Shown: positions 8,575-61,764 of the stretch, piece by piece
Layout of the letters: each line of letters begins with the position of its first letter
How positions within the stretch are numbered: position 1 is the first letter of the stretch
Sequence record: OP114734.1
DNA from: Escherichia phage vB_ESM-pEJ01
Reading direction: 5' to 3' (one strand)
Length of the DNA stretch: 64,000 nt
The notes under the pieces: model-generated
The model's database searches: none
What the model was told of the DNA's origin: nothing
The model's input: the letters and a program-made list of their open reading frames with translations, nothing else
Program-made: the position numbers and the translations under genes

Positions 8575-8580
8575 TAATTT

Positions 8581-15645: not shown

Positions 15646-15667
15646 CCGCCATTATACACACTTTATC

Positions 15668-18346: not shown

Positions 18347-18428
18347 AATATAAACTCCTTCATTTACGAAAGACACTCATTATAGGGGAATCGACCTAGT
18401 TTGTCAATACCCCTATCCCATCAGTATC

Positions 18429-20345: not shown

Positions 20346-20410
20346 ATAATCACCTCTCACAAATTACATCATTAAAACGGGGAGTATTTACACTCCCCAC
20401 AAACATTATA

Positions 20411-25182: not shown

Positions 25183-25224
25183 TCAATTTTTAGAGAGTAT
25201 AACGGGGATTTCTCCCCGCGTCAA

Positions 25225-26250
25225 CTAACTTTTTGCGTTATTTACTTCGGCTAAAAGTTCATCAGAAATACGCTTGACCGCCGCAAGTTCTTCCGGTTCT
25301 AGGTTTTGTTCTTCCAGATATTCATAGACCATCTGAATAGTGCTTTTAACTTCAATAACACCTGTTTCCTGTGATGCGCTACTCTCCAGTTTATGGACCA
25401 CCTTTAGCTTGTGTACAACGGCCTCTAACGCGCTTTCTAACTTAGTTAACCCATTATCAGCGACCGTTGCGATAAGACGCACACTAAGCCCTTTAAAGCG
25501 TTCGACATCGATTTTATCGTCTGACGGGTAAGTGATACGCACATGATAAGTTTTGTCATTCTGAATAAACTCTTTTTTGTGTGTATCGGTATCGAATACC
25601 CAAAAACCACGCGGATCGTTTTCGTCACCCGCCGTTAGTGTGTATGGTGTACCAATATACGTTACGTTACCGCCATCACTGATAGTATGAAAGTGACCCG
25701 AAAACACTTCACGGTATTTCTTGAGGAAGTCCGCGCTATAACCTTCGGATTTTAGCCCTTTATAGAAATAGTAACCGGACAATTCCCAATGGCCTACACA
25801 ATATTCGCTGAATGAGTTTTGAATAAACTCTAAAATCTCTGATTTATTGTCATCACAAAACCACGGGAACAGATCAAATGATACACCATCAAAGGTAACT
25901 GTTTCCGGTTTATCGATAACCTTAATGCAATCATACTGGCTTAACACTTCACGCGGTGCGTTAGGCTGGATCTTGTTTCGTTTAAACATATCATGATTCC
26001 CGACCGTGGTATAACAAGTAATATCAGCCTCTTCCAGTAACGGGATGACCTTAGTACGGTTAAATTTCATGGTTTCATGGGTAATTGCTTTTCGGCAATC
26101 AAACCAATCCCCTGTTTGAATCCATGTCTTAATATTATGCTCTTTGGAGTATTCAACCGCTTTCTTGATGGTATCAAGAATATACTCATGCACCCACGGA
26201 TCATCGCCACCGATACCAGTATGCAGATCACCTAAAAGCAAAATTTTCAT
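25225..26250 (-). CDS. 47: recombination endonuclease subunit gp47 (Mre11/SbcD-like)
   Basis: MKILLLGDLHTG, GNHDM, GHFH phosphoesterase motifs; GAGGAAG SD. Confidence 0.92.
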   Translation of the reverse strand: MKILLLGDLHTGIGGDDPWVHEYILDTIKKAVEYSKEHNIKTWIQTGDWFDCRKAITHETMKFNRTKVIPLLEEADITCYTTVGNHDMFKRNKIQPNAPREVLSQYDCIKVIDKPETVTFDGVSFDLFPWFCDDNKSEILEFIQNSFSEYCVGHWELSGYYFYKGLKSEGYSADFLKKYREVFSGHFHTISDGGNVTYIGTPYTLTAGDENDPRGFWVFDTDTHKKEFIQNDKTYHVRITYPSDDKIDVERFKGLSVRLIATVADNGLTKLESALEAVVHKLKVVHKLESSASQETGVIEVKSTIQMVYEYLEEQNLEPEELAAVKRISDELLAEVNNAKS

Positions 26251-32447: not shown

Positions 32448-32658
32448 TTACCCCGAACTCGTTTACAATCTGCGCTTTATAGTAACCACCGCGAGATGCT
32501 AATAGATAAGCTGGGCTTAGGTATTCGTATTCACGGATTTCTACTTGTGCGTTTTCAGTTTCCCAAATCAGTAAAGTCCACATATTTGATTCTCCTGTAA
32601 AGTTGTATCTCGTCTTGATGAATATAGTATAGGGGATCTCGCGATCCCCGTCAAGCAT
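32431..32658 (-). CDS. hypothetical protein (75 aa)
   Basis: ORF track. Confidence 0.4.
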   Translation of the reverse strand: MLDGDREIPYTIFIKTRYNFTGESNMWTLLIWETENAQVEIREYEYLSPAYLLASRGGYYKAQIVNEFGVIEYEF

Positions 32659-33207
32659 TTATTTTAAATTTTTTCGAATGTATTCAGACCATTCCTTCCC
32701 TGTCATTTCGGACCCGTTCTGGAAACTGAAATATTCATACGGCATCGAGTCAAGATAAAACAGGATCATACATCGCGCCATATAATACCAATCACGATTA
32801 AAGTAAACTACGTTATCACCAGTACCATCAACCCCTTTATCATAACCATCGCGGGTACGGGCGACCCATTGAATAGTATCATTTTTCTCGCGGATCGTAA
32901 CAGGTTCCCAATATCCAGCACATCCAGCATGACCACACGAACAAGTCAGGAAATATTGACCTTTTGCTTTGTTGTCATCCCATTCACGATGGATTGGTTC
33001 GATCTCGTGAAACAGTGCTAAGCAATCATGATTATGCAACACTGGCTTACCATCAATCAATGCATGGAATGTATACAAACGACCAGTAGACAAATAGCTA
33101 TCCTCACGCTCAACCAGTTCAATAGCAATCTTTTTAGCTCGTTCTTTGTGTCGTTGTGCTTTACGCTTACGGTTTAATGATTTCATATTCACCTCACACA
33201 TTATCAA
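32659..33207 (-). CDS. hypothetical protein (182 aa), Cys/His-rich
   Basis: ORF track; LTCSCGHAGCAGYW. Confidence 0.5.
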   Translation of the reverse strand: MIMCEVNMKSLNRKRKAQRHKERAKKIAIELVEREDSYLSTGRLYTFHALIDGKPVLHNHDCLALFHEIEPIHREWDDNKAKGQYFLTCSCGHAGCAGYWEPVTIREKNDTIQWVARTRDGYDKGVDGTGDNVVYFNRDWYYMARCMILFYLDSMPYEYFSFQNGSEMTGKEWSEYIRKNLK

Positions 33208-33614: not shown

Positions 33615-33751
33615 AGTTCCTCTAATAAAAAACTTTCCTTTAAATTAAAACTAGCCAATGTGCTAGCGTGCATTTTAACAACAACACCATCGCCAATTTC
33701 CAGTTTACGAAGTTTAACTTCTTTGCTCAGTACACAAAACATCATCATCAT
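33557..33751 (-). CDS. small hypothetical protein (64 aa)
   Basis: ATG run at 33740-33751 with GAGAGGA SD directly downstream of promoter 33781-33808; overlaps next ORF (possible frameshift or alternative start). Confidence 0.35.
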   Translation of the reverse strand: MMMMFCVLSKEVKLRKLEIGDGVVVKMHASTLASFNLKESFLLEELWLISAGVKAKEHKSVAFA

Positions 33752-33780
33752 GTTGTCCTCTCGTTGTTTTCGATGTGAGC

Positions 33781-33808
33781 ATTATACATTAGCTAATCAT
33801 GTTGTCAA
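33781..33808 (-). promoter_or_regulatory. sigma70-type early promoter (-35 TTGACA rc 33803-33808; -10 TATAAT rc 33781-33786; 16-nt spacer)
   Basis: Perfect consensus hexamers on minus strand. Confidence 0.5.
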
Positions 33809-33824
33809 CACCCCAAAACGAAAA

Positions 33825-33846
33825 AGCCGACCCTTTCGGATCGGCT
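33825..33846 (-). terminator. rho-independent terminator 3' of nrdD
   Basis: rc hairpin agccgatccgaaagggtcggct followed by UUUUCGUUUU. Confidence 0.5.
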
Positions 33847-33851
33847 GAAAT

Positions 33852-35714
33852 TTACATGTGCTTAACGCGGTTTACCATCTCGGAGTGTTTCCCGTGGTTA
33901 AATGGACGCAGATCAACAGATCCAAGATATCCACTAACGCGACGGATAACATTCATCTTTTCCAGATTGTCATTGCCGCAATCAGGACAAACAAAACCAG
34001 ACTCGGTTGCTCTCATTTCCTTAGTAGATCCGCATACATGACATACATCAGAAGGAGTATTAACACCGAAGTAGTGCAATTTATCCATTGCATAGTCTAC
34101 TACAGTTTCAAGACCTTTCAGGTTGTTTTTCATGTCTGGGAACTCAACATAAGAGATCATGCCACCGGACGCCAGCCAGTGATAATCTTTCTCAAAGTCG
34201 ATTTTCTCAAATGGAGTGACTTTCCGGTCTACGTCAAGGTGGAATGAGTTGGTGTACCAGTCTTTATCGGTAGCACCCTTAACAATACCAAATTTCTCTC
34301 TGTCCAGTCGATTAAATCGATAGCAAAGACTCTCGGCTGGCGTACCGTAAAGACTAAACCCAAGTCCGGTTTCGTCCTTCCATTTTTCAGTATAATGACG
34401 CAAGATCTTAAGAATATGTTTACCGTATCGCTGCGCATCTTCCGAATCAAACGGATGAACACCAAACAGGACGCTCAATACCTCATGTAAACCAATATAT
34501 CCAAGAGAGATACTAGCGCGACCATCTTTCAACACTTCCAAAATTTCATCGTTTTGATGAATACGGAAAAATGCACCTTCGGTATACAGTACAGGAGCAA
34601 CATTGGCTTTAGCCCCTTTTAAAGCGTCTACGCGACTCATAAGCGCATCAAAACAAATAGGCAGACGATTCGCTAGCTCTTGTTCGAATAGCTCAATTCT
34701 GCGCATTACAGACTCTTTACCAGCACGACGCGCGGCAATAAGGGCAATACGCGGAAGATTCAGAGTCACAACACCTAAGTTATTACGTCCGTCTAATACT
34801 TCTTCGCCTTTCTCATTATGCCACACACCCAGGAAGCTACGACAACCCATCGGGCTAACCGGAACACTAGATCCAGTGATGCTACGGTTATTCTTCGCAG
34901 AGATATAATCAGGGTAAAGACGCTTACTCGAACATTCCAATGCAAGTTGCTTAATGTCGTAGTTCGGATCTTCCGGTTTAAGGTTTAATCCTTCTTCTAA
35001 GAACATCACCAGCTTAGGAAACACCGGAGTTATACCGTCTTTACCTAAACCTTTAGTTCGAACTTTCAGGATCGCTTTCTGAATCAGTTTTTCTTCCCAG
35101 CTAGTACCCATACCAAAGGTTAAAGTCACAAAAGGCGTTTGACCGTTGGTGGAGAACAAAGTGTTGATTTCATATTCCAACGCTTGATACCCGTCTAAAG
35201 TTTCTTTTTCTGTCTTCTCTTGTGCATAGAGAGTATCAGCTTTGATTCCGTAGGTTTCGGCATCAGCAAGGTGTTTATGATATGTTTTCTCAACGTATGG
35301 CGCTAAAACCTGATCGATGTTTGCGATTGTGGTCCCGCCATATTGATGACTTGCCACCTGTGCGATAATTTGAGCGGTTACAGCACAAGCAACGCCGATT
35401 GATTTCGGACTTTCGATTTGTGCGCTACCCAATTTAAAACCATTCTCTAACATGTCTTTGAGATTAACAAGACAGCAGTTAGTAAACGGCATAGCGGGTG
35501 CATAATCCATATCATGATAATGAATGTCACCGTCTACATGCGCTTTATAGATGTGCTCAGGTAACACGGTTTTAGCAATCTGTTTAGACACAGCACCAGC
35601 AATCAGATCTCGACGTGTCGGGAATGTTCGCGCGTCTTTGTTCGCGTTCTCTTTGCTTACTTCGTTTTCTTTACCCGTTGCGATCTCTGTAATGTCTTTG
35701 ATTAGTTTTTCCAT
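33852..35714 (-). CDS. nrdD: anaerobic ribonucleoside-triphosphate reductase NrdD (glycyl radical enzyme), uninterrupted
   Basis: 620 aa; C-terminal glycyl-radical motif RRVSGYLGS and Zn-ribbon CHVCG...CPDCG. Confidence 0.93.
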   Translation of the reverse strand: MEKLIKDITEIATGKENEVSKENANKDARTFPTRRDLIAGAVSKQIAKTVLPEHIYKAHVDGDIHYHDMDYAPAMPFTNCCLVNLKDMLENGFKLGSAQIESPKSIGVACAVTAQIIAQVASHQYGGTTIANIDQVLAPYVEKTYHKHLADAETYGIKADTLYAQEKTEKETLDGYQALEYEINTLFSTNGQTPFVTLTFGMGTSWEEKLIQKAILKVRTKGLGKDGITPVFPKLVMFLEEGLNLKPEDPNYDIKQLALECSSKRLYPDYISAKNNRSITGSSVPVSPMGCRSFLGVWHNEKGEEVLDGRNNLGVVTLNLPRIALIAARRAGKESVMRRIELFEQELANRLPICFDALMSRVDALKGAKANVAPVLYTEGAFFRIHQNDEILEVLKDGRASISLGYIGLHEVLSVLFGVHPFDSEDAQRYGKHILKILRHYTEKWKDETGLGFSLYGTPAESLCYRFNRLDREKFGIVKGATDKDWYTNSFHLDVDRKVTPFEKIDFEKDYHWLASGGMISYVEFPDMKNNLKGLETVVDYAMDKLHYFGVNTPSDVCHVCGSTKEMRATESGFVCPDCGNDNLEKMNVIRRVSGYLGSVDLRPFNHGKHSEMVNRVKHM

Positions 35715-35758: not shown

Positions 35759-36253
35759 TTATTTTACCAGTTCTGCTAATTCTTTTTCTTTAGCTTCTAG
35801 TTCAGCTTTAAGCTGTTTAATCTCTTGTCGCTTCTTATTAGCGGCTTCTTGCTTACTATTTCGGATAACCTGATCTAGATACAACTCCCAATCCTGAATA
35901 TTTTTGATAATGTAACCGTCAACATTAATTGGTCGGAGATTCAGTACAGCTTCCAGTTTAGTTGCAAAAACTTTAATTGCTGGTGTGAAGTATTCATACT
36001 CGTTATCTTCAAACCAATAACCTAGACTTGCATTCTCAATACGAAGATGAAGTTTAAGATCAAGGTCTTTATCTTCGGTGTAAAGATCTTTCACCTGACC
36101 CAGCGAACTAACAACAACTTTAAAACGAATTTTATCTACACCACCAAACACATCAGTAAGTATACCAGCAATTGAGCTATTAGCGCAAGATTGGTCGCTG
36201 AATGCGTCAAGGTTTTCTTTAGTTACAGTATACCAAACATCTTGTACCCACAT
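35759..36253 (-). CDS. hypothetical protein (164 aa), coiled-coil C-terminus
   Basis: ORF track. Confidence 0.5.
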   Translation of the reverse strand: MWVQDVWYTVTKENLDAFSDQSCANSSIAGILTDVFGGVDKIRFKVVVSSLGQVKDLYTEDKDLDLKLHLRIENASLGYWFEDNEYEYFTPAIKVFATKLEAVLNLRPINVDGYIIKNIQDWELYLDQVIRNSKQEAANKKRQEIKQLKAELEAKEKELAELVK

Positions 36254-36307
36254 AATATAATCCTCTCATTGTTAAGTGGGAGTATTATAGCATACTCCCT
36301 TCGCATG

Positions 36308-37486
36308 TCAAGCACTAACTTTTTTCTTTACTGCTTTCACCTTCTGGCGAATTGCTCGAATCTCTTCGATCTCTTTTTCAGTCTCTTTAACAATTTCTTT
36401 GCGATTCTGAATATCTGTATCTAGATTATCATCAAGTTTAGGCAGCATGTCAATCAAGAACTTTTTAAAGTCTTTCAGGTTTCGGATAACAGCACCTTCA
36501 CCCATTACCGCCACGCCTACACCATCCGGCAGATCACCAAACAGCTTAACCAGTTCAGACAGATGATCATGATCTTCTAGTGCTTCTTCCGGTTCAGATG
36601 GCAGTTCAACAAAGTTATAACGTTCATCATTGCTGATCAAGTGATACCAGCAAAGCCCGAAAGATTTCGGTGTATATTCTACACCATCAATTTCAACCGC
36701 GTCAACACTTCCATAATCATCTACTTTAGTTACCTTAAATCCTTGTCCCAGCTTTTGAACAATTTCAACAACATGACTTGATACAGTTTCAGCGGTAAAC
36801 CAATATGGCAAATTATGCTGATTTGGTTTGTAGCGTTCACCTACTTTAAATCTCTGACCATCCGCTTGCATAGAATGAAATTGTTGTTTCGTGATTTCCG
36901 CGAAGTATTCAAATTCGCTACCGTCAAACAAGCAATTCCATTGATCACAAAAACGATCTGCCTTAACAGTTTCACCTTTCGCGGTGATCATGGTAGCTGA
37001 TCCGTGCAATTCTTCTTCAACTAAAAAGCCATATTCGACAAAATCAACAAGTTTCATAGCTTCTTTGTGATCTGGATCATGCTCTCCCCAGAATCGCTTA
37101 AATTCTTGCAAACCTTCTGGGGTAAACGAATAACATTTACCTTTTTCAAAGTAAGTCGGCATTGCATCCTCTTTCTTGTTCATCGCTTCGTATGCCTCTT
37201 TTGAGATACGTTTAAAGAATTTACGCTCATCGTGCATAATCATAGTAGCCCAATAATAAACGATATCCTCAGCGGAATAAACTACATCTCCAGCTTCAAT
37301 AGTAATAACATGACCGTGGTCATCTTTTTCTAATACTTTAAAGCCCTTTTCTACGATTTCAGCAACCCGAATATGACCACGGCGCGAAGCATCGGTCAGA
37401 ATAATTGAATAGCGAGAAAAGTCTAGAAACTCATCTTTACCGCCTTCACGGAATGCATAGTAATGACCTTCAAAGAATTTAGCCAT
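36308..37486 (-). CDS. modular paralog family member with three tandem N-terminal domains
   Basis: Three repeats (...GFKVLEKDDHGHVITIE...; ...GFLVEEELHG...; ...GFKVTKVDDYGSVDAVEIDG...) plus C-terminal LSELVKLFGDLP helical module; GAGGATTATATTATG start. Confidence 0.6.
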   Translation of the reverse strand: MAKFFEGHYYAFREGGKDEFLDFSRYSIILTDASRRGHIRVAEIVEKGFKVLEKDDHGHVITIEAGDVVYSAEDIVYYWATMIMHDERKFFKRISKEAYEAMNKKEDAMPTYFEKGKCYSFTPEGLQEFKRFWGEHDPDHKEAMKLVDFVEYGFLVEEELHGSATMITAKGETVKADRFCDQWNCLFDGSEFEYFAEITKQQFHSMQADGQRFKVGERYKPNQHNLPYWFTAETVSSHVVEIVQKLGQGFKVTKVDDYGSVDAVEIDGVEYTPKSFGLCWYHLISNDERYNFVELPSEPEEALEDHDHLSELVKLFGDLPDGVGVAVMGEGAVIRNLKDFKKFLIDMLPKLDDNLDTDIQNRKEIVKETEKEIEEIRAIRQKVKAVKKKVSA

Positions 37487-37542
37487 AATATAATCCTCTC
37501 GTTGTTTAGACGGGAGTATCTTACTACTCCCGTTTCATCATG

Positions 37543-38109
37543 TCAAGCGTTAAATGACTTTTGGATCTCTTTCAGTTCAGCTACTTTATCGGCGCTGAAT
37601 TTAGCGTAGGTATCATGTCGAATAATTTCACTTTCAAGAAAGGTTTCCAGCCGAGATCTATTTTCAATAAGGAACTCTTTCAGGTCTTCTGCGTTCTTGA
37701 TAAAGATTTTATTGTCGGTAATGTCATCTTCAATCGCAAAGGAGATAGAGCGAACTTTACCAAACAAGTTAATCAAATCTTCCAGTGATTCTTCTTTCTT
37801 AACTGGTTTCATTTCTTCAAACTGCTTTTTAGTGATGCGTTTAAAGTATTTGCGCTCGCTTGCGTCAATCATGATTGACGCGCCCTCATAATCATGAGTT
37901 TCTACCAAATATACTTTACCCATAACATTAACCGTAAGAACTTTAAAGCCCTTGTGAAGCACACCATACAGGAACGTGTTATGTTGTGGATAGCGTTTAA
38001 CAAATTCCTCTGCGGACTCAGCATTACGGAAAGTGTAATAACGACCTCGTTCAAAAACAGCATCATTTGAAGACTTAGCCGGATACAATTTATACGTTTT
38101 CTGTACCAT
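37543..38109 (-). CDS. modular paralog family member
   Basis: MVQKTYKLY...GFKVLTVNVMGKVYLVE...RKYFKRI; C-terminal LEDLINLFGKV module; start at ATG 38109. Confidence 0.55.
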   Translation of the reverse strand: MVQKTYKLYPAKSSNDAVFERGRYYTFRNAESAEEFVKRYPQHNTFLYGVLHKGFKVLTVNVMGKVYLVETHDYEGASIMIDASERKYFKRITKKQFEEMKPVKKEESLEDLINLFGKVRSISFAIEDDITDNKIFIKNAEDLKEFLIENRSRLETFLESEIIRHDTYAKFSADKVAELKEIQKSFNA

Positions 38110-38123: not shown

Positions 38124-38396
38124 TCATTTCACTAATTGAACAGCACGGAACAGAATGCGCTCACACGGAAGCAGCATAAATTCCCAACGCGGATCAAAGT
38201 CTTTAGCGGTGTATGTTTTCCCATCAACCGAGATTTCACTTACATAACCAACAGGTGACACTTTAAGAACAGTAAACCCATTCTTGATGACTTCGTAGGT
38301 ATCTTTCACCCCTTCGTATTCATCATCTAAGAAGTCTTTATGTGCTTGCTCAGATTTAAAAACATAGGCAACACCGGATTTAAACATCTTACGCAT
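38124..38396 (-). CDS. modular paralog family member (single N-domain, no C-terminal module)
   Basis: MRKMFKSGVAYVFKSEQAHKDF...GFTVLKVSPVGYVSEISVDGKTY; start at ATG 38396 with AGGAGAATC SD. Confidence 0.5.
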   Translation of the reverse strand: MRKMFKSGVAYVFKSEQAHKDFLDDEYEGVKDTYEVIKNGFTVLKVSPVGYVSEISVDGKTYTAKDFDPRWEFMLLPCERILFRAVQLVK

Positions 38397-38427
38397 TGTT
38401 GATTCTCCTTCTTGATTAGATGGGAGT

Positions 38428-38456
38428 ATTTTACTACTCCCATTTCTTATTGTCAA
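38428..38456 (-). promoter_or_regulatory. sigma70-type early promoter (-35 TTGACA rc 38451-38456; -10 TAAAAT; inverted repeat gggagta/tactccc)
   Basis: 17-nt spacer; IR 38422-38441 overlaps -10. Confidence 0.45.
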
Positions 38457-38459
38457 CTA

Positions 38460-38933
38460 CTATCTTAATCTTTGTATAAATTGTTTCTTATACTTCTTCG
38501 TGATCTCTTCTCTTGTATCAGCGTCACAATAATCGAAACCTTCTGCGTCCATAATAGCAACCATCTCCGCGCGTGTCAAGCGTGAAAATCGTTTTACTTT
38601 ATCAACAGCATATTGAGGATGTAAATGATTGTTGGTGTAGTCTCCTTTGATGTAATTAACATAGTTTGTAGCCCAAACAACGAAATCAGCACCTAAAGCA
38701 CCAACACCAAACCGTTTAAAGTCTCCGGTCAACGATCCTTCTAGGCGGTTGCAACACGAATGAAGCAATCCCCTTACGCGGCCTTGCCCTTTCCCATCTA
38801 GATCGTGGTCGTGGTCAAGATGGTTTTTGCTCATATCCTCAAAAAGTGGCAATTGACAAAGGGGGCAAATGCCCCCCTGTTTTTCGAATAGTTCTTGTTT
38901 GTACTCTTTAGCACTCTTAGCAGTCAGTAACAT
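38460..38933 (-). CDS. 49: endonuclease VII (Holliday junction resolvase) gp49
   Basis: GGICPLCQ...NHLDHDHDLDG...VRGLLHSCCN...NHLHPQY match remembered T4 EndoVII; start at ATG 38933 (GGAGGG SD). Confidence 0.88.
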   Translation of the reverse strand: MLLTAKSAKEYKQELFEKQGGICPLCQLPLFEDMSKNHLDHDHDLDGKGQGRVRGLLHSCCNRLEGSLTGDFKRFGVGALGADFVVWATNYVNYIKGDYTNNHLHPQYAVDKVKRFSRLTRAEMVAIMDAEGFDYCDADTREEITKKYKKQFIQRLR

Positions 38934-42038: not shown

Positions 42039-42383
42039 TTATTTCACGTTAACGCCGTTATCAATCCAGCCGACGCTATTTGGTTTAACAGTTTTACCAT
42101 AGGATGCATACTTAATCAAGCATGGTTTAACATTGTTATCAAATCTTCCTAAGCGTACTCCCAAATCAGGAATATCCATGTATGCGGCTTTATATCCCCA
42201 TGTACCGTATTCAGAATCAATCTCAACCGGACGGCCTTTAAAAGCATACACTACACCGTGACGGTCAACGATAACATAGCGATAGCCAGCCGGAAGATAC
42301 ACAGTTTCGCCGTAAACTTTAACTGGAGTAGCAGAAGAGATAAACATAATATAATCCTCACATCGTTCATTTGATGCGGTCAT
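42039..42383 (-). CDS. hypothetical protein (114 aa or shorter)
   Basis: ORF track. Confidence 0.45.
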   Translation of the reverse strand: MTASNERCEDYIMFISSATPVKVYGETVYLPAGYRYVIVDRHGVVYAFKGRPVEIDSEYGTWGYKAAYMDIPDLGVRLGRFDNNVKPCLIKYASYGKTVKPNSVGWIDNGVNVK

Positions 42384-42417
42384 TATATGATAACCGCATT
42401 TTCATGTCAACAGTTTT

Positions 42418-42840
42418 TTAAAAATCTTCTTCCGGTTTATATCGACCGTCATCGACTGGTTTTGGACTGAATCCTTTATGCGTGCGCGGCTTCGCTTCCG
42501 GTTTACCAGCAATCATCAAACCAAAACATTTCATTCCCTTATAACACATAACAATATCAACCACGGTCCACGTTATAGGCCATACGATTGCAGCAATACA
42601 AAATGCTCCTGTATCGACCTCTTTGGTGTCCTTGTCGAATCTGGCGTACAAGCAGAATACTAGATACGAGATCATTGCACCAGTAGTCCAGATATAAAGC
42701 ACATTAACAATATCTTGTGTTGTCACATTATCCTCCTTACATGTCTTGCAGTGCATAAAAGCATTTTTCTTCATAGTCATAGAAAATGTCAAAGTATGCT
42801 TTTTCCACATACTCGCCATTAATCCAAGCGGCAGTAACAA
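42418..42840 (-). CDS. membrane protein (140 aa)
   Basis: Hydrophobic segments (YIWTTGAMISYLVFCLY; FCIAAIVWPITWTVVDIVM); start uncertain. Confidence 0.45.
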   Translation of the reverse strand: MLLPLGLMASMWKKHTLTFSMTMKKNAFMHCKTCKEDNVTTQDIVNVLYIWTTGAMISYLVFCLYARFDKDTKEVDTGAFCIAAIVWPITWTVVDIVMCYKGMKCFGLMIAGKPEAKPRTHKGFSPKPVDDGRYKPEEDF

Positions 42841-43015
42841 TCAGAGTGGTCCAGGTAGATCCGCTCTCAACGGTAAAGGTTTTAATACCCAGCTTCGCTG
42901 CCAAGTCGAACGCAAACCGGACGCAACCACGACAGGAAGTGATGTTGGAAGTTTTGATTTTAAAGCCACCGCGAGTTTTAGAAATTTCTACTTTAGCGAA
43001 AGACAGGTTGCTCAT
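42737..43015 (-). CDS. hypothetical protein (92 aa)
   Basis: ORF track; AGGAGAATCAAAATG initiation region. Confidence 0.5.
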   Translation of the reverse strand: MSNLSFAKVEISKTRGGFKIKTSNITSCRGCVRFAFDLAAKLGIKTFTVESGSTWTTLIVTAAWINGEYVEKAYFDIFYDYEEKCFYALQDM

Positions 43016-43094
43016 TTTGATTCTCCTTAAGAAAGTGTGTTTCGTTTTGATGTGTGTAGTATAGGGGATACGTGATCCCCTGTCAACAATTTTT

Positions 43095-43424
43095 TTATGA
43101 TTTTAGTGAATTAACCACTACATCAAAATGATGTACAGAGCACACCTTACGAAACACATATTCATCATGTTTCGGAATCGCCCCCAACCGCTTTATTTCG
43201 CTCGCTGACACGATAAACCGTTTATCAGGTGCATTTACCTTATATGCTTCAACAACGCACGGAAAACGCGTTTTAGAGAGTTCGGGATAGTTTTCTGACT
43301 CCATCAGGACAATGAATACCCTATTACATTGATTGTAGAATCCGGTTTTTGATTTCATCAAGTTTTCTTCTCTGTGAAATTCGTGCAATCTTCCTTTCAT
43401 GATTTCGTTGGTTCCTGTCTTCAT
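43095..43424 (-). CDS. hypothetical protein (start uncertain)
   Basis: ORF track; overlaps next ORF by about 100 nt so an internal start is likely. Confidence 0.35.
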   Translation of the reverse strand: MKTGTNEIMKGRLHEFHREENLMKSKTGFYNQCNRVFIVLMESENYPELSKTRFPCVVEAYKVNAPDKRFIVSASEIKRLGAIPKHDEYVFRKVCSVHHFDVVVNSLKS

Positions 43425-44844: not shown

Positions 44845-45106
44845 TACATGCTTTTAATGCATCGGTCGCGGTGTCATAGCGAGTATTATCATAGCACCAA
44901 TAACCATCTGTCAACTGATAAATTAATCCATCCTTTTTAGCTTCGATGAAAGACAATTCTTTGAAAGTTTCTACTTTCTTTGCTGATACTCCACGGTCAC
45001 GGCGCTTATAGAGTTTAGCCAAAATGCGTTCAGCTTGTTCCTCTTTATCGCCAGACAGATCCCAGATGATGTTTCTGATATGCTTGATTAATTGTTCAGT
45101 GGTCAT
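44816..45106 (-). CDS. hypothetical protein (96 aa)
   Basis: ORF track. Confidence 0.45.
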   Translation of the reverse strand: MTTEQLIKHIRNIIWDLSGDKEEQAERILAKLYKRRDRGVSAKKVETFKELSFIEAKKDGLIYQLTDGYWCYDNTRYDTATDALKACNDHLRKTTI

Positions 45107-45135
45107 ATTTGATTATCCTTAGTTGGTATGCGTGC

Positions 45136-45163
45136 ATTATAGCATTGTGATTATCTTTGTCAA
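45136..45163 (-). promoter_or_regulatory. sigma70-type early promoter (-35 TTGACA rc 45158-45163; -10 TATAAT rc 45136-45141)
   Basis: Consensus hexamers, 16-nt spacer, followed by SD and ATG at 45106. Confidence 0.5.
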
Positions 45164-45180
45164 CACCCAAAAACAAAAAA

Positions 45181-45200
45181 GGCTACCCCGAAGGATAGCC
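45181..45200 (-). terminator. rho-independent terminator 3' of glycine-rich gene
   Basis: Hairpin ggctaccccgaaggatagcc followed on minus transcript by UUUUUUGUUUUU. Confidence 0.45.
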
Positions 45201-45207
45201 CATAAAA

Positions 45208-46038: not shown

Positions 46039-46260
46039 TTAGATGATCTCTGCTTCACCATTCAGGAAGAAAGACCATGTTTTGTTAGGATAGCGAAGCG
46101 CCCATGATTCAGCGGTTTTAACACCAGCTTCGAACAATTGACGGCTGGTTACTTTCGCCATACCATCTTCAATGTCAACGTTTTCAATAATCATCGGGTA
46201 CTTAGCGCCACGCATGAAACCGAAGCCAGCGGAAGATTTGATAATTTTAACAGTTGCCAT
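46039..46260 (-). CDS. hypothetical protein (about 73 aa)
   Basis: Track ORF 46039..46332; ATG at 46260 (MATVKIIK...) has AGGAGAATCAAAATG initiation region and promoter upstream. Confidence 0.5.
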   Translation of the reverse strand: MATVKIIKSSAGFGFMRGAKYPMIIENVDIEDGMAKVTSRQLFEAGVKTAESWALRYPNKTWSFFLNGEAEII

Positions 46261-46300
46261 TTTGATTCTCCTAGAAAGTGTATCTCGTTTCGATGGGTAT

Positions 46301-46329
46301 ATTATGCAATAACACCGGATCGCTGTCAA
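46301..46329 (-). promoter_or_regulatory. sigma70-type early promoter (-35 TTGACA rc 46324-46329; -10 CATAAT; 17-nt spacer)
   Basis: Part of recurring promoter-leader cassette. Confidence 0.45.
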
Positions 46330-46349
46330 CACTTTCTAAGAAAAAATTT

Positions 46350-46634
46350 TTAAACTAATCGAATATAGCCCAGAATTTCAGCACCTTTAGCCAAACCTAA
46401 AACTTCCCATTCAAGGTCGCCGTATTCGTAATTTGCAACCATCAACTGACCATTTTTCATGCAGCATTCATGAGAGAAAATTTGCCCCGCATAAACCACG
46501 ATAGTAATAAACTTTCCTGATTCTGGAGGTATGGAAGACAAAGCGACCATATGACCATTCAGCTTAGTCACCAGTGATGGAACAATAAAATTCGGGCTTA
46601 CCTGAATACCTTTAAATTCGTTTGTGTCTTTCAT
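46350..46634 (-). CDS. hypothetical protein (94 aa)
   Basis: ORF track. Confidence 0.45.
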   Translation of the reverse strand: MKDTNEFKGIQVSPNFIVPSLVTKLNGHMVALSSIPPESGKFITIVVYAGQIFSHECCMKNGQLMVANYEYGDLEWEVLGLAKGAEILGYIRLV

Positions 46635-47316: not shown

Positions 47317-47515
47317 TCTTCACGGTCTCCATAATTGTTTTGTAAGCCAGCTTAAGATGATCACCGAAAAACTTTGCAGTGTTACCCTTCGGATCGCGGA
47401 GCATGGTTTCTACGATCTCATCGGCAGTAACAATTTCTCCTTTCTTTGCTGCATGTTCTACCATATACTTCAAAGTTTCTTCGGAGGCAAGTGCTGCGGC
47501 CACTGGATTAATCAT
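47306..47515 (-). CDS. hypothetical protein (69 aa)
   Basis: ORF track; AGGAGAATCAAAATG initiation region. Confidence 0.5.
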   Translation of the reverse strand: MINPVAAALASEETLKYMVEHAAKKGEIVTADEIVETMLRDPKGNTAKFFGDHLKLAYKTIMETVKNAK

Positions 47516-47542
47516 TTTGATTCTCCTTTGTTGTCGATGTGT

Positions 47543-47571
47543 GCATTATGCTATACCCTATTCCGGTTGTC
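47543..47571 (-). promoter_or_regulatory. sigma70-type early promoter (-35 TTGACA rc 47566-47571; -10 CATAAT)
   Basis: 17-nt spacer; recurring cassette. Confidence 0.45.
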
Positions 47572-47588
47572 AACACCTAAAAACGAAA

Positions 47589-47608
47589 AAGCCACCCTTT
47601 CGGATGGC
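47589..47608 (-). terminator. rho-independent terminator
   Basis: rc hairpin agccatccgaaagggtggct followed by UUUUCGUUUU. Confidence 0.5.
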
Positions 47609-47842
47609 TTTTGATTATATTTTATTCACGTCCATTTGTATAGTAGTGTTTGAATCGACCTTTGCTAAACTAGTTAAACATAGTAACCAATTCACCATCC
47701 CTTTCCAATGATAACCCTTCCTCGTCTTAGACGGGTCTTCCGATTCGGCAGTAATTGAACACGCGAAAGTATGAGGAAGCCAAATAGTTGTGTTAATGCT
47801 AGTATTCTTTTACTTCTGGTATGCATCCCACGGTGACTAACA

Positions 47843-50717: not shown

Positions 50718-51308
50718 TCAATAGCGTTTAGTCTTAAGAATGCCTTTACTCTTTAGATGGTTAGCCTTTTTTAGTACGTCATCAGCATAACCTAATCCGG
50801 CTTTATAGTTCCATCCAGCATTGTAAGAAGCTAGCGCGAGTCGGATATTACCGTTTCGAACATCCAGCCAGTATGCTAACTCATCCATCGCGTAGAATGC
50901 AGAAACCTCGCGATTCATGATAAAGTTGATAGTCTGGCGATCACTCATTTTAACACCGAGCTTTGCATTTTTCGCTTTCACCGTTTTAAGGTAATTTTGA
51001 AACAATCCATAAGCATGATGATTTTTCTTTGGTGCTAAGTTTGCACCCGCGCTTGATTCTTGCCATGCGATACCCGCCAGGATGTGGCCTAAACCCTTTC
51101 CGTTATAGCGAATATTCGGATGGTCCTTTTTCAACTTACCGCTTTTCTCGAATTGCTCGCCGTATTGATAGGCGAAATGTAAATTATCTAGTTGGTGTGC
51201 TGTAAAGTTGTCTATCGGCGCTTTTTTGATCGGTGCGCTAGTCGATGCGTGTGTAGCACCAACGGCTAGTGACAGACTCAATACTATCGCTTTTAGAACT
51301 TTTAACAT
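50718..51308 (-). CDS. secreted lytic transglycosylase (SLT domain) with signal peptide
   Basis: Signal peptide MLKVLKAIVLSLSLAVGATHA; SLT catalytic region GIAWQESSAG...YGLFQ. Confidence 0.5.
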   Translation of the reverse strand: MLKVLKAIVLSLSLAVGATHASTSAPIKKAPIDNFTAHQLDNLHFAYQYGEQFEKSGKLKKDHPNIRYNGKGLGHILAGIAWQESSAGANLAPKKNHHAYGLFQNYLKTVKAKNAKLGVKMSDRQTINFIMNREVSAFYAMDELAYWLDVRNGNIRLALASYNAGWNYKAGLGYADDVLKKANHLKSKGILKTKRY

Positions 51309-51393
51309 TAATTTCTCCTGTTTGGCTTAACTTTCTGATTCCATAATATAGCCCTATCACCAGAAAGTCAAGCATTAATTTAACCAATTTCCA

Positions 51394-51816
51394 TTATTGG
51401 TCTACCTTCAAAACAACCGCCGACATTTTACCCGCCAGTCGTTTTGGATTCTCTATAATCATTCGGCAGCATAGACCGTGATATGGCTTACCCTCTTCGA
51501 TTAGATCTACTGTCATCCCGATCCACATGTTACCATCAGTAATTTCTAATCGATTAGGTCGGTCTTCCATTTTCAGGAAGTCGAAGATCTCCGGCAAACG
51601 AGTTTCTATCTTATTGAATAGTTCCATTGTCTTATGTTCATCGATATGACGATCGGTTAGACGGTCGATCATATGCGGACTAAAGCGAATGAAAATATAC
51701 TCACCGTAACCATCATTCAAGCACTTTTCTTTGATCTGCGCATTGGTTTTGCGCATTTCGGTTTCGAAGAATCTACGCAGCTTACTACGGCGAACATGTA
51801 CGTTAATTGTTTCCAT
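51394..51816 (-). CDS. regB: RegB endoribonuclease
   Basis: INVHVRRSKLRRFFE...NRLEITDGNMWIGMTV...CRMII resembles remembered T4 RegB; start at ATG 51816 (AAGGA SD). Confidence 0.8.
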   Translation of the reverse strand: METINVHVRRSKLRRFFETEMRKTNAQIKEKCLNDGYGEYIFIRFSPHMIDRLTDRHIDEHKTMELFNKIETRLPEIFDFLKMEDRPNRLEITDGNMWIGMTVDLIEEGKPYHGLCCRMIIENPKRLAGKMSAVVLKVDQ

Positions 51817-51820
51817 TTTA

Positions 51821-52156
51821 TTATCCTTTCTTAAACAAATTGCGAAGCCAGTATACAAACGGGATTTCTTTAAACTTGAATTTCTCTATAGTTAATTCTT
51901 TAGTAGCAAGATGAATACCATAAGCATCATGTGTCACGATATGCCATTTTCTATAGTCCAAATGTGAACAACCGTCTGGATCTAGGTTAATAAGAGTTTC
52001 TCGCTCACTAGGATTATTTTTCCACAATTTTGTAATAGGATCGCACATAATTCGACCTAGCGTACCATGAATAATCTCACAACGGTAAAGTTTTCCAGCA
52101 GTGAGATAGGCGCACCCGTCATAGTCGGTATAAACAAACACTTCTTTAACACTCAT
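51821..52156 (-). CDS. small paralog family protein (member 1 of 3)
   Basis: DPDGCSHLDYRKWHIV motif shared with next two ORFs; start at ATG 52156 (AAGGAG SD, promoter upstream). Confidence 0.5.
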   Translation of the reverse strand: MSVKEVFVYTDYDGCAYLTAGKLYRCEIIHGTLGRIMCDPITKLWKNNPSERETLINLDPDGCSHLDYRKWHIVTHDAYGIHLATKELTIEKFKFKEIPFVYWLRNLFKKG

Positions 52157-52184
52157 TTTAATACTCCTTTGTTTCGATGGGGGT

Positions 52185-52213
52185 ATATTACTACCCCCGT
52201 TTTGTTGTGTCAA
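52185..52213 (-). promoter_or_regulatory. sigma70-type early promoter (-35 TTGACA rc 52208-52213; -10 TAATAT; IR gggggta/taccccc)
   Basis: 17-nt spacer; IR 52180-52199. Confidence 0.45.
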
Positions 52214-52474
52214 CTACTTTTTCAAGATTTTTTTAATTGCGTTCCAAAGACCTTTATTCTCAGGTTGTTTTGGTTCTTCGATTAGTGTCCATGTTCGACC
52301 GTCTAAGTGTGCACAATTTTTAAGACAAATAAAAATCTGGTGTCCCTTATCATCACGGATATAACCACTATTCGCAAATCTTTCATGTGGTGTATATTCA
52401 TACAGTGTATTTGGTGTAATATACTTGCGGTTACTATAAGGTGTCATCACATACATCATGGTACTAACTCCCAT
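52214..52474 (-). CDS. small paralog family protein (member 2 of 3)
   Basis: YEYTPHERFANSGYIRDDKGHQIFICLKNCAHLDGRTWTL; start uncertain. Confidence 0.45.
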   Translation of the reverse strand: MGVSTMMYVMTPYSNRKYITPNTLYEYTPHERFANSGYIRDDKGHQIFICLKNCAHLDGRTWTLIEEPKQPENKGLWNAIKKILKK

Positions 52475-58371: not shown

Positions 58372-58698
58372 TTAGAAAGAAACAGTTTTCAAGAAATCCA
58401 GATTTTCAGTACCGAAAAAGGAAAAGTAGTGTTTTCCTTTTTCGGTTTTAGAGAAAGCGATTGTCTTCTCTACATGGTGACGGAAGCCAGACAGACGATC
58501 ACCCAGGTCAAGGCGGCAAGCGTAAGTAGTGCCGTTTTCGAAAGTAACCTCGATTTGAGTTTTGTCATATTCGCTTTCATAGGCTTTTGCTGCCGCGTCC
58601 TGTGCTTTACGCTCGAAGTCTTCGAAGTGGAATACTTCGTTTGCGTTAGCGAATACAGAAGATTCAGAGAAGATAACTTTAACAGATACTGGTTTCAT
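58372..58698 (-). CDS. hypothetical protein (108 aa)
   Basis: Promoter-leader cassette upstream; AGGAGTATCAAAATG. Confidence 0.5.
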   Translation of the reverse strand: MKPVSVKVIFSESSVFANANEVFHFEDFERKAQDAAAKAYESEYDKTQIEVTFENGTTYACRLDLGDRLSGFRHHVEKTIAFSKTEKGKHYFSFFGTENLDFLKTVSF

Positions 58699-58740
58699 TT
58701 TGATACTCCTTAGTAGTTCGTGTTTCGTTTCGATGGGTGT

Positions 58741-58769
58741 ATTATGCTATACACCCTCTCGCGTGTCAA
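58741..58769 (-). promoter_or_regulatory. sigma70-type early promoter (-35 TTGACA rc 58764-58769; -10 CATAAT; IR gggtgtat/atacaccc)
   Basis: 17-nt spacer; recurring cassette. Confidence 0.5.
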
Positions 58770-58777
58770 CAACTTTT

Positions 58778-58966
58778 TTAGTCTTTTTTCATAATTTCTA
58801 GAGCAGTTTCTACAGCACCTTTCCAACCTTCCCACATAATGGACATAGTAAGGAAGTTAAAGCACCCGCAGGAATCAACCTTTTTAGAGATAAACCATTC
58901 TACAAACGCTTCGCTCATACCATGCTCTTTAGCGGATTCGCGTAATTGTTCAATTTGGTCTTCCAT
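58778..58966 (-). CDS. hypothetical protein (62 aa)
   Basis: ORF track. Confidence 0.45.
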   Translation of the reverse strand: MEDQIEQLRESAKEHGMSEAFVEWFISKKVDSCGCFNFLTMSIMWEGWKGAVETALEIMKKD

Positions 58967-59176: not shown

Positions 59177-59404
59177 TTAAAGTTGTTCTGCAATGTATGC
59201 GGTGCATTTACGGAGTTTAGCCATAGCACTACCTTTCATGTCGCTTGCGCCTACAATGTTCATGATCTCTAAGCGATCAGCCGGATTCAGTCTAGTAGCC
59301 CAGATCTGGTTAGCCAGTTCCATTTTACCCATCTGCGGTTCCATCTCAAACATTTCACGCTCAAAGTCGATAATTTCTTTTGCTGCGTCTTTAAAGTTAA
59401 TCAT
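59177..59404 (-). CDS. hypothetical protein (75 aa)
   Basis: ORF track; SD GGGAGGACCAAAATG. Confidence 0.45.
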   Translation of the reverse strand: MINFKDAAKEIIDFEREMFEMEPQMGKMELANQIWATRLNPADRLEIMNIVGASDMKGSAMAKLRKCTAYIAEQL

Positions 59405-59470
59405 TTTGGTCCTCCCGTTTCGTTGATGGTTGTATTGTAGGGGAGTTATCCTCCCCTGTCAACAATTTTA

Positions 59471-59656
59471 TCAGAAATATGCAATATAGTTTGCCAGTCC
59501 TACAGAGTCATCATTCGGCATTGCTTTTACCGCCAGTTCAAACCCTTCTTCAACTTTCTGTTTAGCGGATTCTTCGTTATAACCCCAGATGACCAGAATA
59601 GCTACTACGTTTTCTTTGCTTACTGCTTTCAGTGCTTTAGTGATGCGACGTGCCAT
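59471..59656 (-). CDS. hypothetical protein (61 aa)
   Basis: Promoter-leader cassette upstream. Confidence 0.45.
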   Translation of the reverse strand: MARRITKALKAVSKENVVAILVIWGYNEESAKQKVEEGFELAVKAMPNDDSVGLANYIAYF

Positions 59657-59702
59657 AATTTGATTCTCCGTTTAAGAAAGTGTGTTTCGTTTCGATGGGT
59701 GT

Positions 59703-59731
59703 ATTATGCTATAGGCGTGATCTGGTGTCAA
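59703..59731 (-). promoter_or_regulatory. sigma70-type early promoter (-35 TTGACA rc 59726-59731; -10 CATAAT)
   Basis: 17-nt spacer; recurring cassette. Confidence 0.5.
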
Positions 59732-59763
59732 CAACTTTTTTAAAAAATTTTAGGCAATAAAAA

Positions 59764-59785
59764 AGCCACTCCGAAGAGTGGCTTA
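59764..59785 (-). terminator. rho-independent terminator
   Basis: Hairpin agccactc-cgaa-gagtggct followed on minus transcript by UUUUUUAUU. Confidence 0.5.
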
Positions 59786-59786
59786 T

Positions 59787-61054: not shown

Positions 61055-61213
61055 TTATTTGCTAATCGCTAAACCCAATCCGAAGAGAGCACCCGATGCT
61101 ACAGTATACCCGAAAGTTTCAAATGCAGTAAAGATATCTAAGCCACCAGCTAACAGAGTTGCAGTAAACAGAGTACCAGCTACGAACATAAAAGTTTTAC
61201 CGATGAATTTCAT
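61055..61213 (-). CDS. small membrane protein (52 aa), not in ORF track
   Basis: MKFIGKTFMFVAGTLFTATLLAGGLDIFTAFETFGYTVASGALFGLGLAISK; AGGAGAATCAAAATG initiation region and promoter directly upstream. Confidence 0.5.
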   Translation of the reverse strand: MKFIGKTFMFVAGTLFTATLLAGGLDIFTAFETFGYTVASGALFGLGLAISK

Positions 61214-61244
61214 TTTGATTCTCCTTTCGTTTGTTTGTGGGGGT

Positions 61245-61273
61245 ATCTTACTACCCCCGTTTCATGTTGTCAA
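61245..61273 (-). promoter_or_regulatory. sigma70-type early promoter (-35 TTGACA rc 61268-61273; -10 TAAGAT; IR gggggta/taccccc)
   Basis: 17-nt spacer; IR 61240-61259. Confidence 0.45.
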
Positions 61274-61279
61274 CTATTT

Positions 61280-61654
61280 TTAAGAATATTTTACTTCGTC
61301 TACAATGTCTTTCATGACATTGATTTCCATTCCGGTCAGAACACGTTGGAACATGTGCTGCACATACGCTTTCAGGTATTCATTTGATGGCTTACTATCG
61401 AAAGTCTTTTTAGTGTAGTAGTCATCACCGAAAGCTACTGTAATTACATTTTCGTCGTCGCTCCAAGCGATATAAGCAAATTTGCCGTTATCCCAGAAGC
61501 GAGCACTAATTGCTACTTTTGTTGAATCGAATCCTACTTCGCTGTGAGATTCAAGAACTACTTGTGTGCCAGTTTCTTTATGAATGTAGTAGCGGGATAC
61601 TAAGTCAAAGTTACGGGTGTAGTGACATTCGAATTTATCTTTAAACATCATCAT
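61280..61654 (-). CDS. hypothetical protein (124 aa)
   Basis: Promoter-leader cassette upstream. Confidence 0.5.
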   Translation of the reverse strand: MMMFKDKFECHYTRNFDLVSRYYIHKETGTQVVLESHSEVGFDSTKVAISARFWDNGKFAYIAWSDDENVITVAFGDDYYTKKTFDSKPSNEYLKAYVQHMFQRVLTGMEINVMKDIVDEVKYS

Positions 61655-61692
61655 TTTTGATTCTCCTAAGTGTGTTTCGTTTCGATGTGTGC

Positions 61693-61721
61693 ATTATGCT
61701 ATAGTCGTTTATGGTTGTCAA
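61693..61721 (-). promoter_or_regulatory. sigma70-type early promoter (-35 TTGACA rc 61716-61721; -10 CATAAT)
   Basis: 17-nt spacer; recurring cassette. Confidence 0.5.
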
Positions 61722-61738
61722 CACATAAAAACAAAAAA

Positions 61739-61757
61739 CCCCGAAAAATTTTCGGGG
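61739..61757 (-). terminator. rho-independent terminator 3' of the 2H phosphoesterase gene
   Basis: Hairpin ccccgaaaa/ttttcgggg followed on minus transcript by UUUUUUGUUUUU. Confidence 0.5.
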
Positions 61758-61764
61758 TATAAAA

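Follow-up and report, generated by a model that had tools for sequence, protein, structure and literature searches.

Composite regulatory elements that combine a promoter with a stem-loop have been described as repeated motifs in the phages phi1 and RB49, where they were named PeSLs, for "promoter-early stem-loop" (Arbiol et al., 2010; PMC2839356). Their parts are an upstream stop codon lying in an AT-rich region, -35 and -10 elements of sigma70 consensus, a stem-loop, a Shine-Dalgarno sequence and a start codon, and 52 such elements were counted in phi1 and 51 in RB49 (PMC2839356). The stem-loop often consists of a polyG followed by a polyC and can occupy five different positions with respect to the promoter, most commonly between -35 and -10 or overlapping the -10 (PMC2839356).

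Several of these elements have been studied functionally. PeSL193/192 and PeSL206/205, whose hairpins both sit between -35 and -10, displayed very strong promoter activity in vivo, and the stem-loop of PeSL211/210 cut lacZ expression about as much as the terminator rrnB T1 (PMC2839356). The hairpin of PeSL211/210 is likewise placed between -35 and -10, is followed by TTATAAT, and is the sole stem-loop tested for termination in the main text of that paper. PCR and sequencing data indicate that minicircles arise by recombination between PeSLs, and PeSLs are found on both sides of gene 43 (PMC2839356). The stem-loops have been proposed to attenuate upstream transcription, and the elements as a whole are considered recombination hot-spots (PMC2839356; PMC4122927). 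Our literature search found no transcript-end mapping for RB49-like phages.

Related arrangements exist in other phages. The PeSL concept was extended to T4/PST and KVP40/nt-1 (Comeau et al., 2014; PMC4122927), and the PeSL-like elements of these pairs and of the T-even internal-protein loci likewise join an early promoter to a stem-loop and flank hypervariable small genes. Their authors nonetheless regard them as analogues and not as homologues, as they use T4-type early promoters and have weaker, AT-rich stems in which the G-run and C-run are absent. Phage morons (Hendrix et al., 2000, as cited in PMC2839356) are also small accessory genes with their own promoter and transcription stop, but their regulatory sequences differ from one copy to the next and are not believed to play a part in mobility, whereas PeSLs are repeats of conserved sequence that serve as linkers in recombination.

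Here we analyze a 64,000-nucleotide stretch of DNA from Escherichia phage vB_ESM-pEJ01 (OP114734.1; hereafter the window), in which a promoter-leader cassette recurs on the minus strand, with the copy at 61211-61298 as the focal example. This focal element is almost certainly a PeSL, and the roughly 25 other cassettes of the window are PeSLs too, that is, composite regulatory cassettes as known from RB49-like T4-type phages. The PeSLs of RB49 and phi1 come from the same phage group (96-99% DNA identity) and have identical parts in an identical order. Both sets favour small ORFs of unknown function and both flank gene 43, the counterparts in the window being cassettes 18402 (5' of an 892-aa ORF) and 15673; there is no essential difference between them. 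The cassettes represent a rediscovery of an element described in 2010 and no new element. What we add to its description is the absence of a U-tract in the subclass whose hairpin overlaps the -10, the mutual exclusivity of core hairpins and upstream terminators, and a right hairpin arm that ends at the inferred -1 position.

Cassette Census and Promoter Architecture

The 4-kb stretch around the focal site shows 97.7-98.7% identity to the best-matching complete Krischvirus genomes (the RB49-like T4-type coliphages PTE-Eco09, G5211, kvi, GEC-3S and ECD7), and a 25-kb stretch is about 96% identical to RB49, phi1, JSE and GEC-3S. The minus strand carries nearly all genes of the window as well as 57 of its 64 TTGACA hexamers. 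Orthologues of RB49p125 and RB49p124 flank the focal site, an orthologue of gene 49 (endonuclease VII) is present in the region, and in the GEC-3S record the site orthologous to the focal cassette bears an annotated promoter, including its -35 and -10 signals. An Rfam search of the whole window returned zero matches at the gathering threshold.

Cassettes were searched for as a -35 separated by 16-18 nt from a -10, and were retained if they were intergenic and had a ribosome-binding site and an ORF downstream. This yielded 26 curated cassettes (Table 1), in agreement with the more than 20 intergenic promoter-leader sites proposed by the first-pass annotation of this DNA, in which the element was not recognized as one already described. 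An exact TTGACA is present in 22 of the 26, the 25 nt upstream have a mean A+T content of 70% as compared to 60% window-wide, and the downstream ORFs mostly encode 50-200 aa. The TTGACA coordinates listed in the annotation all correspond to the minus strand, although one of them, 47566, is really 47568. Both leader motifs that it had singled out occur in the window far more often than expected by chance, with eight copies of AGGAGAATCAAAATG at no more than two mismatches (0.3 expected) and 16 copies of GAGGATTATATTATG (0.2 expected); a longer leader, CATCGAAACGAAACAC, is present in five copies at no more than three mismatches.

The location of the hairpin is more diverse than the annotation had assumed. 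An inverted repeat over the -10, which it took to be common to all sites, occurs in only nine of the 26 cassettes, eight of them with a 6-nt loop and one (1552) with a longer hairpin. The hairpin fills the spacer between -35 and -10 in four cases, spans the -35 in one and lies in the leader in three. Five further cassettes are devoid of a core hairpin and have an ordinary hairpin-plus-T-run terminator 5' of the -35, and the last four have neither a G-run/C-run hairpin nor an upstream terminator. All five stem-loop positions published for PeSLs are represented in the window. Six of the eleven examples named in the annotation (33803, 45158, 46324, 47568, 59726, and 61716) consequently fall outside the -10-overlapping class, five of these six having an upstream terminator, and the GGGGAT/ATCCCC arms that it cited for such overlap belong to cassette 43081, where the repeat lies between -35 and -10. 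The cassettes display at least nine distinct arm sequences in several registers, displaced by at least 2 nt with respect to the -10. Polarity is uniform: in all 26 core hairpins examined in the window and phi1 the 5' arm holds the G-run and the 3' arm the C-run, a count that treats paralogous copies that exchange sequence as if they were independent.

Table 1. Parts of the focal cassette (61268) and positions of the other PeSL cassettes in the window, grouped by hairpin location.
Cassette	Feature	Positions	Strand	Basis or remark
61268	Stop codon TAA of upstream ORF 61280-61654 (124 aa)	61280..61282	-	6 nt 5' of -35
61268	A/T-rich tract, UP-element-like, 5' of -35, overlapping stop codon	61274..61298	-	sequence
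61268	-35 hexamer TTGACA	61268..61273	-	sequence; consensus scan; promoter annotated at GEC-3S orthologous site
61268	Left hairpin arm GGGGGTA, within 17-nt spacer	61252..61258	-	folding vs shuffles
61268	-10 hexamer TAAGAT; bases 1-5 in 6-nt loop, final T begins right arm	61245..61250	-	
61268	Right hairpin arm TACCCCC; last base = -1 of predicted transcript	61239..61245	-	folding vs shuffles
61268	Predicted transcription start A, 7 nt past -10	61238	-	A at equivalent position in 19/26 cassettes
61268	Leader with AGGAGAATCAAA (Shine-Dalgarno) and ATG of 52-aa ORF 61055-61213	61211..61237	-	
58764	Hairpin over -10 (GGGTGTAT/ATACACCC)	58696..58794	-	
52208	Hairpin over -10 (GGGGGTA/TACCCCC)	52154..52238	-	
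42405	Hairpin over -10 (ATGCGGTTAT/ATGACCGCAT, one G.U)	42345..42435	-	class-2 ribosome-binding site
38451	Hairpin over -10 (GGGAGTA/TACTCCC)	38394..38481	-	
37541	Hairpin over -10 (CGGGAGTA/TACTCCCG)	37484..37571	-	class-2 ribosome-binding site
36306	Hairpin over -10 (GGGAGTAT/ATACTCCC), 16-nt spacer	36251..36336	-	class-2 ribosome-binding site
1183	Hairpin over -10 (GGGGATAT/ATGTCCCC, one G.U), 6-nt loop	1127..1213	-	
1552	Long hairpin over -10 (GGGAGATTCTC...GGGAGTCTCCC), then T-run	1493..1582	-	terminator-like, sense strand
59457	Hairpin filling -35/-10 spacer (GGGGAG/CTCCCC)	59402..59487	-	
43081	Hairpin between -35 and -10 (GGGGAT/ATCCCC)	43013..43111	-	
32649	TTGACG; hairpin between -35 and -10 (GGGGATC/GATCCCC)	32581..32679	-	adjoins segment replaced in Makalu3, SSG23
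25219	TTGACG; hairpin between -35 and -10 (CGGGGA/TCCCCG)	25168..25249	-	
18402	Inverted repeat across -35 (ATAGGGG...CCCCTAT)	18344..18432	-	5' of 892-aa ORF (DNA polymerase gene 43 position)
20428	TTGACT; terminator-like leader hairpin (GGGGAGT...ACTCCCC + TTTT)	20343..20458	-	
15673	Leader hairpin (GGCGGGT...ACCCGCC)	15604..15703	-	
8568	Leader hairpin + T-run (GCCTCC...GGAGGC TTTTTT)	8509..8598	-	
61716	No core hairpin; ordinary terminator (61758-61738 + T-run) 5' of -35	61652..61760	-	
59726	No core hairpin (left arm decayed, variable); ordinary upstream terminator 59784-59763	59654..59786	-	
47568	No core hairpin; ordinary upstream terminator 47612-47587	47513..47614	-	adjoins indel in phi1, SSG23
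45158	No core hairpin; ordinary upstream terminator 45201-45180	45104..45203	-	
33803	No core hairpin; ordinary upstream terminator	33749..33860	-	
51366	TTGACT; no G-run/C-run hairpin	51306..51396	-	other weak fold, p=0.033 vs shuffles
46324	Degenerate repeat only	46258..46354	-	
13543	No hairpin	13491..13573	-	class-2 ribosome-binding site
7999	No hairpin	7944..8029	-	

The Focal Cassette

The layout that had been proposed for 61201-61290 is exact in all its parts, from the -35 and the 17-nt spacer through the hairpin containing the -10 to AGGAG (61225-61221) and ATG (61213-61211, minus strand). The spacer ends in GGGGGTA-G, and the -10 is followed by ACCCCC and then by A. The resulting stem has seven pairs, five of them G-C, closes a loop of 6 nt and folds with -14.0 kcal/mol (z=-5.45 vs shuffles). 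The leader is unstructured, and folding of the entire 61201-61300 segment gives one hairpin, the same as the core-promoter fold. At the 3' end of the cassette AGGAGAATCAAAATG (61225-61211) provides the Shine-Dalgarno sequence and the start codon, and the leader sequence AGGAGAATCAAA matches the strong RegB site GGAGRAYARAA at 10 of 11 positions.

From this arrangement the focal copy is predicted to be an active promoter, with transcription probably starting at A61238. In 19 of the 26 cassettes an A is located 7 nt past the -10, for the most part flanked as C-A-T, which suggests that the right arm finishes at -1 and that the cassette's own transcript would be without the hairpin. The focal hairpin, which has no U-tract, may instead act on read-through RNA.

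Conservation and Covariation of the Hairpins

Each core promoter was folded and compared to 300 shuffles in which both hexamers were held fixed; 15 of the 26 fall at or below the 5% tail of the shuffles, and the mean z is -2.45. For covariation, the -10-overlapping copies of the window were aligned with further copies from the 112-132 kb region of phi1. In register A, where G-C and A-U pairs are exchanged, 90.5% of cells pair as compared to 38-59% with the partner slid by 1-3 columns; in register B the corresponding values are 86.7% and 32-57%, and three pairs (seven cells) are changed on both sides, which none of 500 shuffles reaches. These values (overall 87-90% in register vs 32-59% slid) confirm the earlier claim that the arms co-vary while pairing is kept, but they derive from small samples of paralogues that exchange sequence, by which independent events are over-counted.

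Comparison of ten hairpin-bearing cassettes with three to six orthologues each (from RB49, phi1, Makalu_003, SSG23, GEC-3S, ECD7 and one IMG/VR contig) points in the same direction. Only 6 of 155 stem columns are variable, as opposed to 22 of 74 columns in the non-stem spacer plus loop, which amounts to an approximately eight-fold lower variability in the stems (Fisher p=1e-7). The -35 hexamer varies in 2 of 60 columns, the -10 bases outside stems in 0 of 48 and the leader in 3 of 172. Three of the six stem changes merely swap U-A and U-G. Pairing is lost in the ECD7 orthologue of cassette 37541, and the hairpin is therefore dispensable at least there. The orthologues were drawn from GenBank phage records; in IMG/VR, two scans that used conserved coding 26-mers as anchors gave just two Krischvirus contigs, and for a degenerate PeSL pattern almost all of the matches listed were at chance level. 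Altogether, the hairpins are real and go beyond chance, and the covariation of their arms implies selection for structure.

Proposed Action on Read-Through RNA

Taken as a whole, PeSLs are probably best explained as a strong sigma70 early promoter combined with a hairpin on read-through RNA and a recombination substrate. Host sigma70 holoenzyme would start early transcription from the A-rich tract, the consensus -35, a spacer of 16-17 nt and the -10, and each cassette promoter would drive a short, conserved and unstructured leader with the Shine-Dalgarno sequence and ATG of a small gene. As the cassette's own transcript would begin just past the right arm, the hairpin would be excluded from it and be present only in RNA that reads through from the upstream gene. 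On such RNA it would most likely attenuate the read-through and/or protect the 3' end of the upstream message, which would insulate each small gene cassette. The conserved cassettes of about 90 bp would in addition serve homologous recombination and thereby shuffle the small genes that they flank.

Several features of the cassettes speak for a hairpin that acts on the RNA of the upstream gene. A core hairpin accompanies an ordinary upstream terminator in 0 of 5 window cassettes, whereas it is present in 14 of the remaining 21 (one-sided p=0.012); with 14 cassettes from phi1 112-132 kb added, the proportions become 0 of 6 and 26 of 34 (p=0.0008), the same over-counting of related copies applying to both comparisons. 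In core-hairpin cassettes the stop codon and the -35 either overlap by a few nt or leave a gap of 0-8 nt (18402, with 21 nt, is the exception), and the gap measures 41-44 nt in four of the five cassettes with an upstream terminator. Such a tight gap would make the embedded hairpin the first structure available to read-through RNA. In cassette 59726, which has an upstream terminator, the left arm is decayed and varies between phages, and the right arm is kept as promoter-proximal sequence. Together, the exclusivity, the short gaps and the decay at 59726 lend support, at the level of sequence, to the published proposal of a hairpin acting on upstream-gene RNA. An RNA hairpin on read-through transcripts, with attenuation as its effect, was among the roles considered in the first-pass annotation and is also what the literature proposes (PMC2839356); it fits well with the mutual exclusion of core hairpins and ordinary upstream terminators.

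How the -10-overlapping hairpins would achieve this is less evident. They resemble intrinsic terminators in being G+C-rich and in following directly upon the upstream stop codon, where five other cassettes have an ordinary terminator, but hairpins of the focal class differ from these in that they are sited inside a promoter and have no sense-strand U-tract. Their sense tail is AUCGAAAC or ACAAACAA, with 0-2 T in 8 nt; the focal tail, ACAAACAA, contains no T and hence no U-rich tract of the kind that defines an intrinsic terminator. The missing U-tract makes the -10-overlapping hairpins poor or weak candidates for canonical intrinsic termination. For this subclass we consider the prospects of a role in read-through attenuation or as a 3' structure to be evenly balanced. 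Folding energies do not single out one strand, as the sense strand folds better than the antisense strand in 12 cases and worse in 12 (Wilcoxon p=0.73), and this even split means that sequence alone is no proof of an RNA-level role; in the five cases with the largest strand difference (2.2-7.5 kcal/mol), internal G.U pairs give the sense strand the more stable fold. It is possible, but rather unlikely, that the subclass does not comprise terminators and serves instead as a protective RNA structure at 3' or 5' ends, in concert with the processing of polycistronic early RNA by RegB or RNase E, as the target of a recombination protein, or as a terminator for the opposite strand.

Alternative Functions of the Hairpin

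A function at the DNA level was raised by Arbiol et al., who considered a protein that recognizes GGGG...CCCC, and one RB49 crossover was mapped within a hairpin loop (PMC2839356). The hairpin could accordingly be a signal for a recombination or nuclease protein, for instance endonuclease VII, whose gene 49 orthologue lies in the region, or a binding protein, that promotes cassette exchange; the invariable location of the G-run in the 5' arm (26 of 26) and the nearly equal folding of both strands would be in line with this. The arms, the stem length and the placement relative to the promoter all vary, however, which leaves no common sequence-specific site. Furthermore, homology over about 90 bp alone suffices for recombination, and a DNA signal would leave the absence of hairpins from precisely the cassettes with an upstream terminator unexplained, so that we judge this possibility improbable. 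Arms of 7-8 bp with loops of 4-6 nt are also short for cruciform extrusion, and a role as DNA cruciform is unlikely. If the inverted repeat were the binding site of a dimeric repressor, from phage or host, that silences early promoters, its overlap with the core promoter would be the expected location. Yet the copies share no common half-site, their register relative to the -10 moves by at least 2 nt, G.U-type changes are tolerated and a quarter of the cassettes are without any repeat. A single-regulator operator, which the first-pass annotation had also put forward, is unlikely given that the arm sequences differ between copies, and we regard a repressor site of this type as extremely improbable.

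The hairpins could, alternatively, terminate antisense transcription from the plus strand and thus shield the early genes from convergent transcripts. In a consensus scan, 61237-61260 and 52176-52201 come out as terminator-like on the plus strand, their tails being TTCATGTTGT and TTGTTGTGTC, and on the sense strand the left arm of register-A copies has GAAAC, AAAAC or GAAAT on its 5' side; it is the GAAAC flank that renders the focal hairpin terminator-like on the plus strand only. Two intergenic plus-strand terminators annotated in the Makalu3 record, in its own coordinates, probably correspond to PeSL hairpins as well. But the tail holds just three consecutive U, the flank is missing from register-B copies and from the spacer hairpins, and the scan yields 13 terminator-like sites by chance in the stretch; with nearly all window genes on the minus strand there is, moreover, no evident source of plus-strand transcripts, which makes such a function very unlikely. 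Complementarity of the arms might even be functionless, a by-product of promoter preferences for a G-rich spacer and a C-rich discriminator along with copying among paralogous cassettes. The right arm (ACACCC, ACCCCC) is indeed retained without a left arm in cassette 59726 and in phi1 194/193 and 197/194 and may therefore be conserved as a promoter part, and ECD7 tolerates the loss of pairing at one site. The spacer of sigma70 promoters is normally unconstrained in sequence. The spacer stems are, in contrast, conserved while no positions of the cassette vary more than the neighbouring spacer bases, differing right arms each come with a matching left arm through changes on both sides, and composition-keeping shuffles seldom fold as well; a mere by-product is therefore highly doubtful. 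The combination of an early promoter with a hairpin on read-through RNA remains our preferred explanation.

Recombination Around the Cassettes

The cassettes border indels and replacements and exchange sequence with each other, as PeSLs do. At 47660-47732, adjoining cassette 47568, SSG23 carries an additional 2 kb and phi1 an additional 153 nt, and a replacement of about 470 nt is located at 32677-33141, next to cassette 32649. In Makalu3 and SSG23 the orthologues of cassette 52208 have a spacer that resembles that of cassette 61268. The three largest window-only insertions are HNH homing-endonuclease genes with no bordering cassettes and are unrelated to the PeSLs.

Implications

The present finding is the re-identification of PeSLs in one more RB49-like genome, and the question it leaves is a narrow one, namely the function of a hairpin without U-tract that is embedded in the -10 region. 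PeSLs matter beyond this genome as very compact promoter-plus-insulator parts and as a concrete mechanism for the modular shuffling of genes in large lytic phages.

Antisense calls and natural loss of the hairpin

A consensus scan returned plus-strand (antisense) terminator-like calls on two hairpins of the promoter-early stem-loop (PeSL) cassettes (61237-61260 and 52176-52201), which arise because GAAAC or AAAAC stands just 5' of the left arm on the sense strand. In the record of the RB49-like relative Makalu_003, plus-strand terminators are annotated at two intergenic sites, and these two annotations probably match PeSL hairpins. One cassette hairpin is lost naturally in one phage, ECD7, where the orthologue of the cassette with its -35 at 37541 retains an intact left arm, but carries the right arm TACTACAA instead of TACTCCCA or TACTCCCG.

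GATC, a Dam site, recurs 2-4 nt past the -35 element in the spacers of cassettes 59726, 46324, 43081, 32649, and 1183, and many phi1 cassettes have it at the same distance; some hairpins bear it in both arms (GGGGATC...GATCCCC). The phage encodes a dam gene in the same region. The recurrence of GATC in the spacers could be explained by shared descent.

Rearrangement borders and insertions

When the window is compared with other Krischvirus genomes, replacement and indel borders directly adjoin PeSL cassettes at 32677-33141, by cassette 32649, and at 47660-47732, by cassette 47568, where SSG23 carries a 2-kb insertion. These borders are consistent with the published PeSL-mediated shuffling. Three further segments of the window have no counterpart in RB49, phi1, Makalu_003 or SSG23, and each holds one ORF with an HNH_3 domain, accompanied by AP2 in one and by NUMOD4 in another, and standing alone in the third; no PeSL cassette lies at the borders of these three segments. 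The three ORFs look like free-standing homing-endonuclease genes.

Part of 58000-62000 is also matched by Cronobacter, Klebsiella, and Enterobacter phage records. Some matches to this interval lie at 90-95% nucleotide identity, and a 36-61 kb query gave no match to phage records of these three genera. A segment within 58000-62000 may be shared locally between genera.

Window-only segments and example sites of the second ribosome-binding motif
Feature	Position	Strand	Counterpart in RB49, phi1, Makalu_003, SSG23
Segment, one HNH_3 ORF	39250-40073	minus (ORF)	none
Segment, one HNH_3 ORF	53392-53991	minus (ORF)	none
Segment, one HNH_3 ORF	55149-55793	minus (ORF)	none
Second motif	465-479	minus	
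Second motif	13491-13505	minus	
Second motif	36251-36265	minus	
Second motif	38107-38121	minus	
Second motif	44803-44817	minus	
Second motif	57761-57775	minus	

Leader sequences and proposed post-transcriptional control

The class-1 leader GGAGAATCAAA, present at 61211-61225 and at seven further sites, agrees at 10 of 11 positions with GG*AGRAYARAA, the strong RegB/S1 cleavage consensus (PMC3014915), and the phage carries a regB gene at about 51.4-51.9 kb. RegB probably cleaves inside the Shine-Dalgarno sequence and thereby inactivates class-1 early messages. The second ribosome-binding motif, GAGGATTATATTATG, occurs at 16 minus-strand sites in the window, with nine copies identical across 15 nt; some genes downstream of it lack a PeSL promoter. 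Conservation of this kind, running through the spacer to the AUG, leads us to speculate that the motif is a shared translational operator, possibly of the RegA type.
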